A DNA stretch of 11,143 nucleotides. Origin: a virus. A program made the translations under genes and the position numbers. The notes beneath the pieces were generated by a model, which saw only the letters and a list, made by a program, of their open reading frames with translations, was not told where the DNA came from and made no database searches. Positions 740-11,143 of the stretch are shown here, piece by piece; the first letter of the stretch is position 1, and every line of letters starts with the position of its first letter. The stretch is taken from the UHGV virus genome UHGV-0105484. The stretch is one strand, 5' to 3'.

Positions 740-1129
740 TCAGGCGGCTGCACCCGCCGTTTTCTCGTACTTACTGATAGTGATCTCGACCTTCCCTTCC
801 GGGATAACCGGTCCCCACTCCACCAGCATTCTTTTCACCTGACTGTCGTCTTCCCACACCCCCGCGTGGGTCAGGGCGTCAAACAGCGCCTTGTTATAGT
901 TGTCCAGATCGCGGATCCTGTTATCCGGAGGAAACAACACGATCTCCACTGAAGCAGGTGCCGACGTTGGTTTCGGCAGACGACGTAACTGTTCAACTAT
1001 TGCTGCGCACGCCGCGCTCTGAAATTTTCGCCCCGCCGCGCTTATCAGGCTCTTACCTGCAAACGCCCCTTTGTTGGGGTGTCGCCAGTACGTGTTCACG
1101 CTGGGCGGGAAAGGCAGGATCAGCTTCAT
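740..1129 (-). CDS. rusA: RusA-family Holliday junction resolvase
   Basis: 129 aa; motifs LPFPPSVNTYWRH and RIRDLDNYNKALFDALTHAGVWEDDSQV align with RusA (LPWPPSNNRYYRH ... [28 protein letters not shown]). Start ATG overlaps the upstream stop (ATGA). Confidence 0.85.
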   Translation of the reverse strand: MKLILPFPPSVNTYWRHPNKGAFAGKSLISAAGRKFQSAACAAIVEQLRRLPKPTSAPASVEIVLFPPDNRIRDLDNYNKALFDALTHAGVWEDDSQVKRMLVEWGPVIPEGKVEITISKYEKTAGAAA

Positions 1130-1452
1130 ACTTTCAGGCCCCTCTTATGTAACCAGTGGGTTGCACGCAGCCTGGCGTTTTCCTCACCGGCAAGCAGTGA
1201 GCGGATAATCCCGACCGCCTCGCTGTCGTCGTCCTTCACCGCGGTATGAAGCGTGATGCCCCGGGCCACGCCACGCTTTATCGTGATGACGCCTTTTTTC
1301 TCCAGTGCGCGAAGATGCTCCACCGCTGCATTCACTGAACGGTATCCCAGCATGGTTGCCACCTCCTGATTGGTTGGCGGGAAGCCACGTTCTTTCTGAT
1401 AAGAAATCAGCATATCCAGCACCTGCTGCTGGCATTGAGTTAACGTCGTCAT
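1126..1452 (-). CDS. LexA N-terminal DNA-binding-domain protein (no S24 peptidase domain)
   Basis: 108 aa from ATG 1452 (the track's 1485 start is GTG). MTTLTQCQQQVLDMLISYQKERGFPPTNQEVATMLGYRSVNAAVEHLRALEKKGVITIKRGVARGITL aligns with the LexA DNA-binding domain ([69 protein letters not shown]). Start overlaps upstream stop (TAATG). Confidence 0.6.
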   Translation of the reverse strand: MTTLTQCQQQVLDMLISYQKERGFPPTNQEVATMLGYRSVNAAVEHLRALEKKGVITIKRGVARGITLHTAVKDDDSEAVGIIRSLLAGEENARLRATHWLHKRGLKV

Positions 1453-5029: not shown

Positions 5030-5236
5030 ATGCACAAAACAGAACCAAAAATCGTCGCACCCGGATACACAAATGAGGAAATTTACGAGTGGATGGCAAA
5101 GAAGCTGGCAGCTATAAACCAGCTTCGTGAAGTGCTGTCTTATCGACAGGAAACAATAGACTCCTTAAAAAAACTGGATCAGGAAATCACGGTTTTATCA
5201 CAGGATGTTACTTTAGATATTGTGCAGACAAATTAG
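5030..5236 (+). CDS. Hypothetical small acidic protein (68 aa), first ORF of the pL-like operon
   Basis: ATG 5030 with strong SD GAGGAGG 7 nt upstream (the track's 5015 start is TTG). No recognisable domain; not arginine-rich, so not an N-like antiterminator. Confidence 0.45.
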   Translation: MHKTEPKIVAPGYTNEEIYEWMAKKLAAINQLREVLSYRQETIDSLKKLDQEITVLSQDVTLDIVQTN

Positions 5237-5642
5237 GATCCCATTCATTTTCGTCAAAATCATCAAAGTGATGAATTTGTGATCTCCAGTCTCGATAATC
5301 TAAAAATTTCTGGGCGGTTACGCTTATTTTATCAAGCGTGAGTTCATCCTGAATTGAAAGAAGAAGTTCATCAAATTTCATCTCATTAATCTGTTTTGGC
5401 ATCCAGTGATGCTTCATCAGAATAAGGTGAACCAGAGCTTTTTTCCCATTCAACTGATTATAGGGAGTGCCGAATTTCTTCCGGTGCTCATGTAAGACAA
5501 GGTCCAGAAGAGTAAGTAATGTTGCCCTTGATTCAACTTTGCTTATTTCGACTGATGACACTACCCCACTGATTTCAATGCCCCGATACTTTCCAACATT
5601 TTCACAGTGGGATTTGTACAGCGTATAGATATTACCGGACAT
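5208..5642 (-). CDS. Hypothetical protein (144 aa), AT-rich accessory gene convergent with the 68-aa ORF
   Basis: ATG 5642 with SD AAGGA about 7 nt upstream. Soluble, no recognised motif. AT-rich relative to flanks. Its 3' end overlaps the 68-aa ORF by 29 bp. Confidence 0.5.
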   Translation of the reverse strand: MSGNIYTLYKSHCENVGKYRGIEISGVVSSVEISKVESRATLLTLLDLVLHEHRKKFGTPYNQLNGKKALVHLILMKHHWMPKQINEMKFDELLLSIQDELTLDKISVTAQKFLDYRDWRSQIHHFDDFDENEWDPNLSAQYLK

Positions 5643-6059: not shown

Positions 6060-6422
6060 ATGGCTAGCGAACGCAGTACTGATGTGCAGGCATTTATCGG
6101 GGAGCTGGACGGCGGCGTATTTGAAACCAAAATCGGCGCAGTTCTCAGTGAAGTCGCTTCCGGTGTGATGAACACGAAAACCAAAGGTAAGGTCTCGCTC
6201 AACCTGGAAATCGAACCGTTTGATGAGAACCGTGTGAAAATCAAACACAAACTCTCATATGTTCGCCCGACTAACCGCGGGAAAATTTCCGAAGAAGACA
6301 CCACCGAAACGCCGATGTATGTCAATCGCGGTGGTCGCCTGACTATTCTGCAGGAAGACCAGGGACAATTACTGACTCTTGCCGGTGAACCTGACGGAAA
6401 ACTCCGCGCAGCAGGTCATTAA
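6060..6422 (+). CDS. yfdP: YfdP-like phage protein (120 aa)
   Basis: ATG 6060 with SD GAGGAG 8 nt upstream. Length and position immediately upstream of the yfdQ- and yfdR-like genes match the CPS-53 yfdP-yfdQ-yfdR order. The track's 209-aa ORF is a non-protein-like 5' extension. Confidence 0.55.
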   Translation: MASERSTDVQAFIGELDGGVFETKIGAVLSEVASGVMNTKTKGKVSLNLEIEPFDENRVKIKHKLSYVRPTNRGKISEEDTTETPMYVNRGGRLTILQEDQGQLLTLAGEPDGKLRAAGH

Positions 6423-6487: not shown

Positions 6488-7312
6488 ATGTCTCAGAACT
6501 TAGACGCAACCGCAATTAATCAAATCCATGCCCTTATTTCTGCTCAGGGTGTTAATGAAATTATCAGTAAGATTGGTGCCGATGCTGTGGCATTGCCTGA
6601 GAATTTCCGCATTCATGATCTGGAAAAATTTAATTTAAATCGCTTCCGTTTCCGTGGTGCGCTTTCCACTGCCAGCATCGATGACTTTACCCGTTATTCT
6701 AAAGATCTTGCAGATGAAGGCACCCGCTGCTTTATCGATGCCGATAATATGCGAGCCGTCAGTGTGCTTAACCTGGGTACTATTGATGAACCAGGTCACG
6801 CAGATAACACCGCCACCCTCAAACTGAAAAAGACAGCACCGTTTTCTGCTCTGTTGTCTGTTAATGGCGAGCGTAACTCCCAGAAGTCACTGGCAGAATG
6901 GATTGAAGACTGGGCCGACTACCTTGTGGGCTTTGATGCTAATGGTGACACCATTCAGGCAACCAAAGCGGCTGCGGCAGTCCGTAAAATCACAATTGAA
7001 GCAAACCAGACCGCTGATTTTGAAGACAATGACTTCAGCGGCAAACGCTCCCTGATGGAGTCTGTCGAAGCGAAAACCAAAGACATTATGCCAGTGGCAT
7101 TTGAATTTAAATGCGTTCCGTTTGAAGGCCTGAAAGAACGTCCGTTTAAATTACGCCTCAGCATTATCACTGGCGATCGTCCTGTACTGGTTCTGCGCAT
7201 TATTCAGCTGGAAGCAGTGCAGGAAGAAATGGCTAACGAATTTCGTGATCTGCTTGTTGAGAAATTCAAAGACAGCAAAGTAGAAACCTTTATTGGTACT
7301 TTCACCGCCTGA
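6488..7312 (+). CDS. yfdQ: YfdQ-like protein (DUF2303 family), 274 aa
   Basis: Complete ORF with SD GTGAGGA upstream of ATG 6488. Length (274 aa) and the sequence as recalled fit E. coli prophage YfdQ. Confidence 0.7.
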
Positions 7313-7324
7313 TTTCATTACTGC

Positions 7325-7346
7325 AAATGCCCCTGCGGGGGCATTT
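7325..7346 (+). terminator. GC-rich hairpin between yfdQ-like and yfdR-like genes (possible weak terminator or attenuator)
   Basis: Perfect 9-bp stem aaatgcccc / ggggcattt with loop tgcg; only a short T tract follows, so termination efficiency is doubtful. Confidence 0.3.
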
Positions 7347-7439
7347 ATGGAAACGTAATTAACTCAATAATCGCCGGATGGTGAGGGCTTCCTTTTACCA
7401 GAATTCAGCGCGGTGCAGCGCATATACGTGGAGAACAAA

Positions 7440-7988
7440 ATGTCATTTATTAAAACTTTTTCCGGGAAGCATTTTTATTATGACAGGATAAATAAAGACG
7501 ACATCGTTATTAACGATATCGCGGTTTCTCTTTCAAATATCTGTCGCTTTGCAGGACATCTTTCACATTTCTACAGCGTCGCCCAACATGCAGTTCTTTG
7601 AAGCCAGCTGGTTCCGCAGGAATTTGCTTTTGAAGCATTAATGCATGATGCAACAGAAGCGTATTGCCAGGACATCCCCGCGCCACTGAAACGCCTTCTT
7701 CCTGACTATAAACGGATGGAAGAAAAAATAGACGCCGTAATCCGTGAGAAATACGGGTTACCCCCGGTTATGAGCACGCCCGTGAAATATGCCGATCTCA
7801 TCATGCTGGCAACCGAACGCCGCGATCTCGGGCTTGATGATGGCTCTTTCTGGCCTGTGCTGGAAGGTATCCCGGCAACAGAGATGTTCAACGTGATTCC
7901 ACTGGCACCGGGCCATGCCTACGGGATGTTTATGGAACGCTTTAAAGAGCTGCATAAGATACATAAACAATCCAGACAGCGAAATTAA
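7440..7988 (+). pseudogene. yfdR: YfdR-like HD-domain 5'-deoxynucleotidase interrupted by an in-frame TGA (codon 54, 7599-7601)
   Basis: ORFs 7413..7601 and 7641..7988 are in the same frame and together read MSFIKTFSGKHFYYD...FAGHLSHFYSVAQHAVL-[TGA]-SQLVPQEFAFEALMHDATEAY..., about 182 codons against about 178 aa for YfdR. The first fragment carries His residues and the second the HD dyad. Real ATG is 7440 (7413 is GTG). Confidence 0.65.
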
Positions 7989-8031
7989 CTAGTGAAATAG
8001 TTTTGTAGCAAAAGAAATGAGGTTATCAAAA

Positions 8032-8277
8032 ATGCTTCAAATGCTGACACTTGAGGAATGGGCTGCGGAAAAATTTAGGAGTAATCCTCCAAGTGTGTCC
8101 ACATTGCGTCGTTATGCTAAGCAGAATTTATTTTGTCCACCGGCAATGAAACAAGGTCGACTATGGCGAGTGCGTGAGGACGCAGAGTTAGTTGGGGAAT
8201 TAGTTACTCCTGTCATCAAGAAAAGTGATTCTATTATTCTACAAAGGATTTTAAGTAATGGCAGCCAGACCACGTAA
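8032..8277 (+). CDS. xis: Excisionase (lambda Xis family)
   Basis: MLQMLTLEEWAAEKFRSNPPSVSTLRRYAKQNLFCPPAMKQGRLWRVREDAELV... parallels lambda Xis (MYLTLQEWNARQRRPRSLETVRRWVRECRIFPPPVKDGREYLFHESAVKV). 3' end overlaps int by 20 nt, as in lambda. Alternative in-frame ATGs at 8017 and 8041. Confidence 0.8.
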   Translation: MLQMLTLEEWAAEKFRSNPPSVSTLRRYAKQNLFCPPAMKQGRLWRVREDAELVGELVTPVIKKSDSIILQRILSNGSQTT

Positions 8278-9385
8278 AAATAATGTTTCAGTCCCGAACT
8301 TGTATCCGCTCTATAGCAGAAAAGTAAATAAAGTCTATTGGCGATATAAGCATCCAGTGACCGGGAAGTTTCATTCTTTGGGCACAAACGAAGCTGAAGC
8401 CATTGCTATTGCCACTGAGGCCAATACACGCCTAGCTGAGCAAAGAACCCGGCAGATTCTGGCTATCAGTGACAGGATCGCAACCAGCAAAGGAAAAGCA
8501 ATCACAACGTCAACCTGGTTAGATCGCTATCAAGCAATCCAAGATGACAGACTGAAAAGTGGCGATATAAAGCTCAATACCTATAAACAGAAAGCCAAAC
8601 CAGTATCCTTGCTCAGGGAACGAGCAGGAATGAAGTTTATTTCATCCGTTGATGTAAGGGATATCGCACAATTGCTTGACGAGTATATCACCGCCGGGCA
8701 ACCGAGGATGGCGCAAGTAGTCCGCTCCGTTCTAATTGATGTATTCAAGGAGGCACAACACTATGGGGAAGTCCCTCCGGGCTATAATCCAGCACTGGCA
8801 ACCAAACAACCCAGAAGAAAAATTACCCGACAACGGTTAAGTCTTGAAGAATGGCAAAAAATCTTTGATATTGCAGATGCCAGTCATCGTTATATGGGGA
8901 ATGCCATGCTGTTAGCACTGGTTACCGCCCAGCGGTTAGGTGATATCTCACGTATGAAATTTAGCGATATTTGGGATGATCATCTTCACGTCATCCAAGA
9001 AAAAACAGGGAGCAAAATCGCCATCCCACTTTCCCTTCGCCTCAATGCGATTAACTGGAGTTTACGCGATGTAATAGCCCGCTGCCGTGACTATGCAGTC
9101 AGCCCATACCTGGTGCATTTTTTCCGTTCAACTTCACAAGCAGAACGTGGGGCACAGGTTAAATCCAATACATTGACGACGAATTTCAGTAAAGCGAGGG
9201 ATTTGGCAGAAATCGACTGGGGTGATGGCACACCCGCAACATTCCATGAACAAAGGTCTTTATCTGAGCGACTTTACGAAGCTCAGGGTGTCGACACCCA
9301 AAAACTTCTGGGGCATAAATCGCCTAATCAAACCGCTCGCTACCACGATGATCGCGGAAAGGAATGGATAAAGATTCAAAACTAG
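8258..9385 (+). CDS. int: Lambda-family tyrosine integrase
   Basis: 375 aa. N-terminus has an arm-binding-type region (PNLYPLYSRKVNKVYWRYKHPVTGKFHSLG). C-terminal catalytic motifs: Arg in TAQRLGD, HEQRSLSERLY (His-x-x-Arg box) and LLGHKSPNQTARYHDDRGKEW (Tyr nucleophile). Confidence 0.9.
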   Translation: MAARPRKNNVSVPNLYPLYSRKVNKVYWRYKHPVTGKFHSLGTNEAEAIAIATEANTRLAEQRTRQILAISDRIATSKGKAITTSTWLDRYQAIQDDRLKSGDIKLNTYKQKAKPVSLLRERAGMKFISSVDVRDIAQLLDEYITAGQPRMAQVVRSVLIDVFKEAQHYGEVPPGYNPALATKQPRRKITRQRLSLEEWQKIFDIADASHRYMGNAMLLALVTAQRLGDISRMKFSDIWDDHLHVIQEKTGSKIAIPLSLRLNAINWSLRDVIARCRDYAVSPYLVHFFRSTSQAERGAQVKSNTLTTNFSKARDLAEIDWGDGTPATFHEQRSLSERLYEAQGVDTQKLLGHKSPNQTARYHDDRGKEWIKIQN

Positions 9386-9398
9386 CGTAATTTATTTG

Positions 9399-9827
9399 TT
9401 AATTTCTAATAGACAAAAGGACTATTTGAATAACAATAAATATAATTTGTATTAAAGTTACAACTGCAAGAGTTAATGTAAGCGATGCGATAAAGTAGGT
9501 TTTAATACTTGAAAGACAAAGCAATGATAATAAAAGAGTAATACCAAGTTGAATAAAGCATACAAAATAAAAGATCATTGCGCCCTGTAAATATCCGTGT
9601 GCCCTAAATCTTTGTATGTTAGCATTATCTAAAGAAGTTAATATGACAATAAGAGCAAAAATGAGCGCCATCATTGCTGTCGCATACGATGCTAAAGCTG
9701 AACCAAGACCATCTAGATGTTCTTTGAAATTTACCCCCGGTAGAATATCATAGCGATATTTGTACACGCCAAAGCCAATAGCGTTTGTCATAATCGTTAA
9801 AACCACGGGGGGAAACCATTTAATCAT
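9399..9827 (-). CDS. RexB-like small integral membrane protein (4 predicted TM helices)
   Basis: 142 aa from ATG 9827, which lies 1 nt after the upstream stop (TGAnATG); the track's longer start is 9857. Four hydrophobic segments. Motif LPGVNFKEHLDGLGSALASYATAMMALIFAL matches lambda RexB as recalled (IPGVSFSAHRDGLGATLSSYAGTMIAIL); size matches RexB (144 aa). AT-rich. Confidence 0.6.
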   Translation of the reverse strand: MIKWFPPVVLTIMTNAIGFGVYKYRYDILPGVNFKEHLDGLGSALASYATAMMALIFALIVILTSLDNANIQRFRAHGYLQGAMIFYFVCFIQLGITLLLSLLCLSSIKTYFIASLTLTLAVVTLIQIIFIVIQIVLLSIRN

Positions 9828-9828
9828 T

Positions 9829-10644
9829 TCAGTATCCAGCAGCCCTAAGATCTGCATTATTAATAAAGTTAGTTACCATTTGGCTCTCTATAGATATATT
9901 TGCGTTTTTATTGACTATATCATAGATGCCACCCGTTGTCGCGACATGAAGCTCAATCGCTTGGTCTCCTAGCGCTTGCTTCGCCGCTATTGTCATTTCA
10001 CGGATACCTGCTGGTAAGTTGTTTAATGTTGGACTAATGGTATCCTTAATGTTTTTAAGATGTTTTGGTTTAATAGTAATTTCAAAACTGTCTACATCAT
10101 TAAGATCAACAGCTGTTATACCAAGAAAATTTGTCATCTCCCTTAACGCGAAAGGAGAATTAGGTTCTAATTTTACATTGATTTTCCCCATATGTGCATA
10201 CTGCAATGCCTGGGCTGGCGTAACAGTTTTCTTGATGGGCTCAAATCTTATATTTCTATTGTTATTCGTATTAAAGAAAAAGTTGTCATAATATTTACCA
10301 AAAGAGCCAATTTTGGGACCAAAGAGAGTCGAGCCATACCCTACACAACGATTAGAAATGTAAATATATGAGGCAAAAGCAACGTCCTGATTTTGTTGCA
10401 GCAATGCCGTAATGTCCTGGTAGTTGTTATTAACTCTATCGATGGTTTTTATAATGTCTGTATTATTTGTTTTTAAAAACATAAATACATCACCCAATAT
10501 ATGATGTATCGAGTAATACGAACCATCTAACCTAACTGTTTGTGTGTTGCTCTGAATGAGTTGCAGAAAAGAAGAGCTAAGAGAACTCGCAAGAGGTTGC
10601 CCGTTTTGCGGATAAAGATCATATTTGTAATAATTCGTTTTCAT
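9829..10644 (-). CDS. RexA-like soluble protein (271 aa)
   Basis: Complete ORF from ATG 10644 in a roughly 30% GC island. Size and position (upstream of and coupled to the membrane gene) match lambda RexA (279 aa). Recalled RexA motifs have counterparts: Y-x-Y-I-H, F-x-F-x-KTN (FMFLKTNN), T-x-FGP (STLFGP), I-x-IKPK (EITIKPK). Not confirmed by database search. Confidence 0.6.
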   Translation of the reverse strand: MKTNYYKYDLYPQNGQPLASSLSSSFLQLIQSNTQTVRLDGSYYSIHHILGDVFMFLKTNNTDIIKTIDRVNNNYQDITALLQQNQDVAFASYIYISNRCVGYGSTLFGPKIGSFGKYYDNFFFNTNNNRNIRFEPIKKTVTPAQALQYAHMGKINVKLEPNSPFALREMTNFLGITAVDLNDVDSFEITIKPKHLKNIKDTISPTLNNLPAGIREMTIAAKQALGDQAIELHVATTGGIYDIVNKNANISIESQMVTNFINNADLRAAGY

Positions 10645-10712
10645 CCCTAATCATCTTATGATTTATTGTAGGTAAACCTATTCTCTTCATTATGTGTTCA
10701 AAATCAATCGTT

Positions 10713-10744
10713 TTGATAAATTTTTTTGATAAATCTTTGATAAC
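10713..10744. promoter_or_regulatory. Three tandem TTGATAA repeats upstream of the rexA-like gene, near the icd junction
   Basis: ttgataaa (10713-10720), ttgataaa (10726-10733), ttgataac (10737-10744), spaced 13 and 11 bp, in the 160-bp gap between the rexA-like start and the icd stop. Confidence 0.4.
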
Positions 10745-10765
10745 CGTTCGAATACTAATAATATA

Positions 10766-10796
10766 AACGGGAACCATTTGGCTCCCGTTTTTGTTT
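10766..10796 (-). terminator. Hairpin terminator immediately downstream of icd (potentially bidirectional)
   Basis: 10-bp stem aacgggaacc / ggctcccgtt (one mismatch), loop attt. Followed on the plus strand by TTTTTGTTT and on the minus strand (icd sense) by a U/A-rich tail, 16 nt after the icd stop. Confidence 0.55.
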
Positions 10797-10811
10797 AACC
10801 CAGAATCTGGA

Positions 10812-11143
10812 TTACATATTTTCGATGATCGCATCACCAAACTCTGAACATTTCAGCAGTTTAGCGCCTTCCATCAAACGTTCGAAGTCATAGGTTACGG
10901 TCTTCGCATTGATTGCGCCTTCCATACCTTTAACAATCAGGTCTGCGGCTTCGGTCCAACCCATGTGGCGTAACATCATCTCAGCAGAGAGAATAATAGA
11001 GCCTGGGTTAACTTTGTCCTGACCGGCATATTTCGGCGCAGTACCGTGGGTAGCTTCAAACAGGGCGCATTCGTCACCGATGTTTGCGCCAGGGGCGATA
11101 CCGATACCGCCAACCTGCGCTGCCAGGGCGTCAGAAATGTAGT
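10812..11143 (-). CDS. icd: Isocitrate dehydrogenase (NADP), C-terminal fragment; prophage attachment target
   Basis: Minus-strand translation reads ...[96 protein letters not shown], the enterobacterial Icd C-terminus. Host-like GC content, unlike the adjacent AT-rich island. Confidence 0.95.

Follow-up and report, generated by a model that had tools for sequence, protein, structure and literature searches.

A private in-frame TGA, one of three clustered base changes, in the yfdR gene of an icd-integrated lambdoid prophage from a low-coverage metagenome contig

The stretch of DNA that we analysed (the window, 11,143 nt) is an entire metagenome contig, NODE_4807_length_11143_cov_3.807089 of ENA assembly ERZ1304861, with a k-mer coverage of about 3.8x. 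Its minus strand carries, in order, a partial KilA-N gene, RusA, a LexA-like gene, PerC, HTH_36, YmfL and a Cro-like gene. These are followed on the plus strand by cI (S24), two small ORFs, yfdP, yfdQ, yfdR, xis and int, and after int by RexB and RexA on the minus strand and the 3' end of icd. The upstream genes yfdP (6060-6422, +) and yfdQ (DUF2303; 6488-7312, +), identified by gene calls, Pfam and RefSeq names, are intact and free of internal stops. Directly 3' of yfdR is xis (8032-8277, +), and then int (8258-9385, +). The yfdR gene, at 7440-7988 on the plus strand, thus belongs to the early-left operon (cI, yfdP, yfdQ, yfdR, xis, int) of a prophage of lambdoid type that has icd as its integration site. 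Internal stops are absent from all 17 other genes of the window.

Exact look-up of the PerC, HTH_36 and Cro-like proteins showed that at least 13 other, independent assemblies contain this prophage lineage. These sister contigs include those of the NCBI isolates GCA_037638555.1, GCA_051410135.1, GCA_016445125.1, GCA_036881295.1, GCA_024700255.1 and GCA_053259255.1, together with several from ENA and Logan metagenome assemblies. GCA_037638555.1 and at least 12 other assemblies have the gene order of the window, namely icd, RexAB, int, xis, yfdR, yfdQ, yfdP and KilA-N. Sister contigs run on into Q, holin, lysis, Bor, HNH, terminase and portal genes, and because they hold this full lambdoid late region the prophage looks complete.

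The original prediction drew on YfdR of CPS-53 (KpLE1); judged by its surrounding genes, the element is not CPS-53 but an apparently complete lambdoid prophage integrated at icd. The CPS-53 order yfdP-yfdQ-yfdR-yfdS-yfdT is not found here. The window has yfdR followed by xis, int, RexB, RexA and the 3' end of icd, and gene calls place neither yfdS nor yfdT in its prophage. CPS-53 is presumably integrated at argW, away from icd, whereas e14 is integrated at icd like the prophage studied here. The upstream partners yfdP and yfdQ are common to CPS-53 and the window.

Several other features of the contig deserve description. The 3' end of icd (10812-11143, minus strand) closes the contig at the integration site, and many sites within this segment (10842-11127) are polymorphic among the otherwise near-identical sisters, which is consistent with a boundary here between host sequence and an icd 3' replacement carried by the phage. 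RexB (9399-9827) and RexA (9829-10644), both on the minus strand, are cargo between int and icd and were matched by PADLOC with E values of 4e-55 and 1e-103. At least 80% of 9386-11143 is covered in only one of 5,426 complete E. coli genomes, GPEC617, where RefSeq calls both Rex genes hypothetical. In EC190486 the same slot holds a DNA adenine methylase and an AAA ATPase; further loci used in comparing the slot were L001 (10079-12718) and L135 (11322-12567). The int-adjacent RexAB slot looks like a variable position for defence cargo. Inside the early-left operon, a 144-aa ORF (5208-5642, minus strand) overlaps the end of a 68-aa ORF (5030-5236, plus strand). The two (together 5030-5642) have no PADLOC match and belong to no listed Pfam family, and they are conserved across all sister contigs. 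A promoter and terminator scan of 7250-8100 returned nothing relevant. A perfect inverted repeat at 7335-7358, AAATGCCCC-TGC-GGGGGCATTT, lies about 20 nt beyond the stop codon of yfdQ, with yfdR starting about 80 nt further on, and went uncalled by the simple terminator scan because no run of T follows it.

Approximately 3,000 complete E. coli genomes contain a match of 90-98% identity to an 801-nt region of the window. RefSeq names the gene there "yfdR: 5'-deoxynucleotidase" or "HD family hydrolase", between a "YfdQ family protein" and "xisE excisionase". The proposed yfdR-like identity is well supported, since RefSeq yfdR lies on 98%-identical DNA and, over the length they share, the protein has 94% identity to the 178-aa NCBI 5'-deoxynucleotidase clusters, which we take to be of the K-12 CPS-53 type. 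A search of 5.8 billion proteins found 4,717 homologues. In an alignment of 27 full-length members the metal-binding residues His50, His69-Asp70 and Asp133 (H...HD...D) are invariant, and the K-12 CPS-53 protein has them as well. The nearest solved structure is that of the HD-domain protein Atu1052 (PDB 2gz4, E 2.4e-13).

YfbR, the chromosomal HD-domain 5'-deoxynucleotidase of E. coli, shares the fold family and the metal-binding motif but is only a distant relative. The match to the Pfam YfbR-like family (PF12917) is weak and falls just below the gathering cut-off (25.3 bits, cut-off 25.9), and NCBIfam NF003009, the YfbR equivalog, gives 20.8 against a cut-off of 122; both weak matches cover residues 40-104. 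We therefore rejected YfbR equivalog identity on the NCBIfam score, and the yfdR assignment is made because the protein is near-identical to RefSeq proteins of that name. As judged from sequence, the gene is a true member of the yfdR family and a distant relative of yfbR. Activity as a dNMP phosphatase and binding to DnaA are known for the K-12 YfdR alone, and the affinity of YfdR for nucleotides is reported to be much lower than that of YfbR (PMC4776307).

The yfdR gene is variable at its ends. There are at least three C-termini: ...KELHKIHKQSRQRN in the 182-aa form (window 7935-7988, followed by xis), ...NDLSELRKCA in the 178-aa form and ...KELTES in a 174-aa form (proteins P0002, P0005 and P0008; loci L136 and L137). 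The last 12 or so residues of the window protein accordingly differ from those of the 178-aa form. A divergent N-terminal module (P0011, P0022) is joined near codon 58, so that yfdR is mosaic at both ends.

Translation of 7440-7988 gives 182 codons ending in TAA, with a single internal stop, the TGA at 7599-7601 (codon 54). This bears out the prediction of a yfdR-like frame broken by one in-frame TGA. The ORF list shows the frame as two pieces, 7413/7440-7601 and 7641-7988. The first would yield a 53-aa N-terminal fragment (7440-7598, +) if the stop is real, with His50 inside it and the HD dyad outside. The second is a 115-aa ORF (7641-7988, +) that starts at Met68 and contains His69-Asp70 and Asp133 but lacks His50; upstream of a restart at 7641 there is a weak GAAG alone. 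The His50 codon (7587-7589, +), the first His of the H...HD...D motif, is four residues before codon 54, and the codons for the His69-Asp70 dyad (7644-7649, +) lie 3' of the stop.

Codon 54 is TGC (Cys) in the 182-aa yfdR product of EC190486 (WP_033553800.1), to which all remaining residues of the window protein are identical. Cys, the amino acid suspected at the outset, is also found in the sisters, the altered base being 7601 C>A. The two fragments were expected to add up to about the normal length, and they do, the frame of 182 codons corresponding to the 182 aa of WP_033553800.1. It had also been asked whether the family might normally consist of two separate genes. It consists of one: a continuous frame of approximately 174-188 codons, absent from the window contig, is present in 111 of 113 scored alleles and in 13 of 13 sisters.

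The TGA has one of the usual marks of a pseudogene, a premature stop (TGC>TGA) where orthologues are intact, and lacks another, since the lesion does not recur in its lineage, being missing from the 13 sister contigs and from every collection searched. Nor did we find any sign of relaxed constraint in the window yfdR, such as additional missense changes or indels. Apart from the stop, the protein equals that of the intact sisters, and the only other private changes in the gene are two synonymous bases.

Decoding of UGA, as selenocysteine or by efficient readthrough with Trp, could in principle allow the full-length protein still to be made. The TGA is in frame and falls exactly at the Cys position of the homologues, a classic Sec/Cys signature, and the selenocysteine machinery is present in E. 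coli. One of the companion changes described below, 7613 A>T, slightly improves a small hairpin, GGUUCC-GCA-GGAAUU, 3' of the UGA. This hairpin, however, begins 8 nt past the UGA, has a 3-nt GCA loop and is missing from the centroid structure. The E. coli SECIS element requires a bulged U17 and G23-U24 in the loop; here position +17 is a paired C and positions +23 and +24 are AA. Folding of the 62 nt that begin at the UGA is no more stable than that of shuffled sequences (z = -0.77) or of the ancestral sequence, and Rfam gave no match in the window.

The identity of residue 54 also argues against recoding. It is mostly Cys among the 27 homologues but Thr or Val in six, and in Atu1052, whose conserved His aligns with His50, a hydrophobic residue is found four positions on. 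Because of this exchange among Cys, Thr and Val and the hydrophobic residue in Atu1052, residue 54 is not a redox or catalytic Cys; it is better regarded, from these alignments, as a packing position. Moreover, TGA terminates 7 of the 17 other genes of the window, which speaks against decoding of UGA here and led us to reject an alternative genetic code. We consider a decoded UGA to be scarcely credible. The same holds for the more elaborate idea that the three private changes described below constitute a real, coordinated recoding, in which a full-length phage HD-domain protein would contain a non-standard amino acid a helical turn away from the metal-binding His50, to which we attach next to no weight.

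We looked for the TGA allele elsewhere. A TGA-specific pattern in which neighbouring synonymous sites were left free had no match in GTDB (one genome per species), JGI metagenome contigs or IMG/VR. A control pattern with the third base free recovered 122 loci, giving 123 alleles with L001; codon 54 is TGC in all 123 and TGA in none. The TGA is absent from all 138 alleles that were read base by base, and the C at 7601 is also found in the 13 sisters, in GPEC617 and in two IMG/VR alleles. Among the roughly 3,000 complete E. coli genomes, the best 81-nt match still differs from the window at four positions. Short megablast queries over 7601, with either the TGA or the repaired TGC, were both without a match in complete E. 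coli genomes, as the local haplotype is absent from that collection.

Look-ups at the protein level gave the same picture. The window contig is the only one with a record of the exact 115-aa product of the downstream ORF. The exact 53-aa product matches NCBI entries from at least 24 contigs, which we considered as candidate TGA alleles and rejected, as all ten that were inspected are genes cut at a contig end; sibling partial yfdR entries range from 28 to 52 aa. Dozens of draft E. coli assemblies (L125-L134) end a contig within the first 160 nt of yfdR, leaving partial products of 28-53 aa. These breaks are probably due to the presence of several prophages per genome that share the gene, with up to five matching places per genome. 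Because contigs break inside yfdR in this way, exact look-ups of short fragments can mimic truncated alleles.

Disrupted yfdR alleles do exist. Two of the 113 scored alleles, both from metagenome loci, are broken, L027 by a stop after 76 aa and L022 by indels, and frameshifted proteins form the clusters P0016 (120 members), P0023 and P0088. Some of these lesions are clearly real because they are common to many genomes, as in P0016. Like the window TGA they inactivate a yfdR gene, but they are frameshifts, indels or a stop elsewhere, and the window TGA is a singleton. Overall, yfdR is disrupted at the low rate to be expected of prophage decay.

The sister contigs allow a comparison within the lineage itself. 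All of them encode an intact YfdR, and in 13 of 13 the protein is identical over its 182 aa to the repaired window protein. The closest, that of E. coli GCA_037638555.1 (JBBGNV010000032.1), has 3 mismatches in 11,143 nt over the whole window (11,140 bases identical). Compared base by base, the window differs from all 13 sisters only at 7595, 7601 and 7613, within a 19-nt interval (7595-7613, +). Here the sisters read GCAGTACTTTGCAGCCAGCTGGTACCG and the window GCAGTTCTTTGAAGCCAGCTGGTTCCG. The changes are 7595 A>T (GTA>GTT, Val52), 7601 C>A (Cys54>stop) and 7613 A>T (GTA>GTT, Val58), so that codons 52, 54 and 58 are GTA, TGC and GTA in GCA_037638555.1 and the other sisters. Each of the three is a transversion in the third position of its codon, and two leave the amino acid unchanged. 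The remaining 11,124 nt of the window contain no unique base. What this study newly shows is that just three bases, all within 19 nt, are unique to the window and that the TGA owes its origin to one of them.

Three random positions in 11,143 nt would fall within 19 nt with a probability of approximately 8.5e-6, and we therefore treat the burst as one event. An earlier map of 19 private bases, with a G:C>A:T skew, had been made against less related loci selected by pattern and is rejected here, as 16 of those bases are the haplotype of the lineage. For example, 7568T and 7592A are common to all sisters and are present also in L132 and two IMG/VR alleles. That map missed 7595 because T is common there in other alleles (35 of the 123 yfdR alleles). 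The variants 7601A and 7613T occur in no other sequence searched (the 123 alleles, complete E. coli genomes and IMG/VR and, for 7601A, also GTDB and JGI).

The lineage does contain a lesion of a different kind. A 1-nt deletion at 1299 in the LexA_DNA_bind gene (1126-1452, minus strand) is common to L145 and L150, which come from different assemblies; the LexA-like gene is called as 57 aa in L145 and is uncalled in L150. This deletion is a real, shared inactivation, in contrast to the TGA, which is private to the window.

No source for the burst was found by copying. On either strand, the best ungapped match over all three changes was 21 of 33, which is at chance level. A template switch, quasi-palindrome or direct repeat was also rejected, as a quasi-palindrome centred on CCAGCTGG predicts other changes. 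The 8-nt TTTGAAGC repeat at 7629-7636 was set aside as it would account for 7601 alone, and a diversity-generating retroelement was discarded for want of a template repeat and of a reverse transcriptase among the called genes. The stop is thus not inherited in the phage lineage but belongs to a single, private, untemplated burst.

The tree of possibilities still includes a patch of gene conversion from an unsampled, diverged yfdR paralogue, with the TGA either carried by the donor (a pseudogene) or arisen on the patch. Three third-position changes, two of them synonymous, are what one would see between functional alleles, and 7595T is common in other yfdR alleles. The gene is multi-copy and mosaic in E. 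coli, with its N- and C-terminal variants and its several matching places in a genome. Yet no donor allele with 7613T or 7601A was present among the sequences searched, and the 7595T alleles do not resemble the window, as 7592 is G in them and 7613 either G or A. Such a patch would also leave the stop in need of a separate origin, and we judge it improbable.

The original alternatives, recent pseudogenisation or a sequencing error, are still the right pair. We see an even chance that the stop stems from a consensus error in a thinly covered stretch and that the gene is really intact, which would place the origin of the burst, as we infer, in sequencing or assembly rather than in the cell. With a k-mer coverage of about 3.8x, some stretches should be represented by one or two reads, and there a single flawed read could enter the contig. 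One poor or damaged read would have been carried into the assembly at such a spot, and the real gene would be intact and encode the 182-aa protein of the sisters. The absence of private bases from the other 11,124 nt and of internal stops from the other 17 genes fits one local flaw in an otherwise accurate consensus.

Some observations sit less easily with a consensus error. Threading through a de Bruijn graph should need error-free flanks on both sides of the burst, which would be unusual for the tail of a poor read. The third-position bias is also a mild hint of a real allele filtered by selection: given a stop, the probability that the other two changes are both synonymous is approximately 5%, and that both are at third positions approximately 11%. 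Genuine inactivations occur, both in the lineage (the 1299 deletion of L145 and L150) and in the family (the two of 113 alleles, P0016, P0023 and P0088). Finally, the contig is indexed under two samples, and an error would be unlikely if these represented independent read sets; the listing of an identical contig under two samples more probably means that the same reads were recorded twice.

The other member of the pair is a real and very recent multi-nucleotide mutation, for example in one stretch of error-prone synthesis, in a single cell lineage, giving a private null allele. We rate this as a serious possibility, somewhat short of an even chance. The TGA and its two companion bases are present in the assembled sequence, and a one-event cluster is equally expected from such a mutation. 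The disrupted alleles already mentioned show that yfdR is broken at low frequency, and the shared 1299 deletion shows that decay is under way in the lineage. A null allele would be tolerable because deletion of yfdQRST in K-12 is without a growth or replication phenotype, and the requirement of a poor read for clean flanks would make the route through error the harder one. Against a real mutation, the allele is in no other assembly despite at least 13 samplings of the lineage, the coverage is only about 3.8x, and the complete lack of other differences from the nearest relative over 11 kb leaves little evolutionary time for a rare triple event.

With a real stop, translation would end after residue 53, so that His50 is kept and the HD dyad and Asp133 are lost, and a product restarted at Met68 would be without His50. 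Judging from the motif, the phosphohydrolase site could not form in either case. DnaA binding may also be lost. The stop would leave approximately 390 nt of mRNA untranslated ahead of xis, which could expose xis and int to Rho-dependent polarity.

It had been suggested that loss of yfdR reflects selection against a toxic gene, on the strength of a report that YfdR binds DnaA and inhibits initiation of replication. The binding is real, involving domain I of DnaA and depending on Phe46 (PMC4776307). Inhibition of initiation is seen with multicopy yfdQRS or yfdQRT, the minimal set being yfdQ and yfdR with either yfdS or yfdT, and yfdQR alone is inactive (PMC4776307). The window prophage, being without yfdS and yfdT, lacks that set. 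Wild-type MG1655 was transformed normally by the multicopy plasmids (Table 5 of PMC4776307), and deletion of yfdQRST left growth and DNA content unchanged (PMC4776307), so that cells tolerate the genes and their loss is neutral. A loss favoured by selection should recur or be shared; the window stop is a singleton, and the yfdR frame is uninterrupted in every one of the 13 sisters and in 111 of the 113 scored alleles. That the stop is an adaptive loss is therefore very unlikely, and nothing points to selection for the loss of yfdR.

A real stop would represent neutral, early decay of a dispensable accessory gene rather than adaptation. The finding is biologically ordinary and of little weight, as yfdR is a prophage gene that has been described before, nonsense alleles turn up routinely among the accessory genes of prophages, and the present singleton may not exist outside the assembly. 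Its lesson is one of method: apparent pseudogenes in low-coverage metagenome contigs should first be compared with sequences of the same lineage. In the present case, comparison with the sisters reduced 19 apparently private bases to three within 19 nt and made an adaptive story unnecessary. A burst confirmed in reads would provide a modest example from nature of untemplated multi-nucleotide mutation inactivating a gene.
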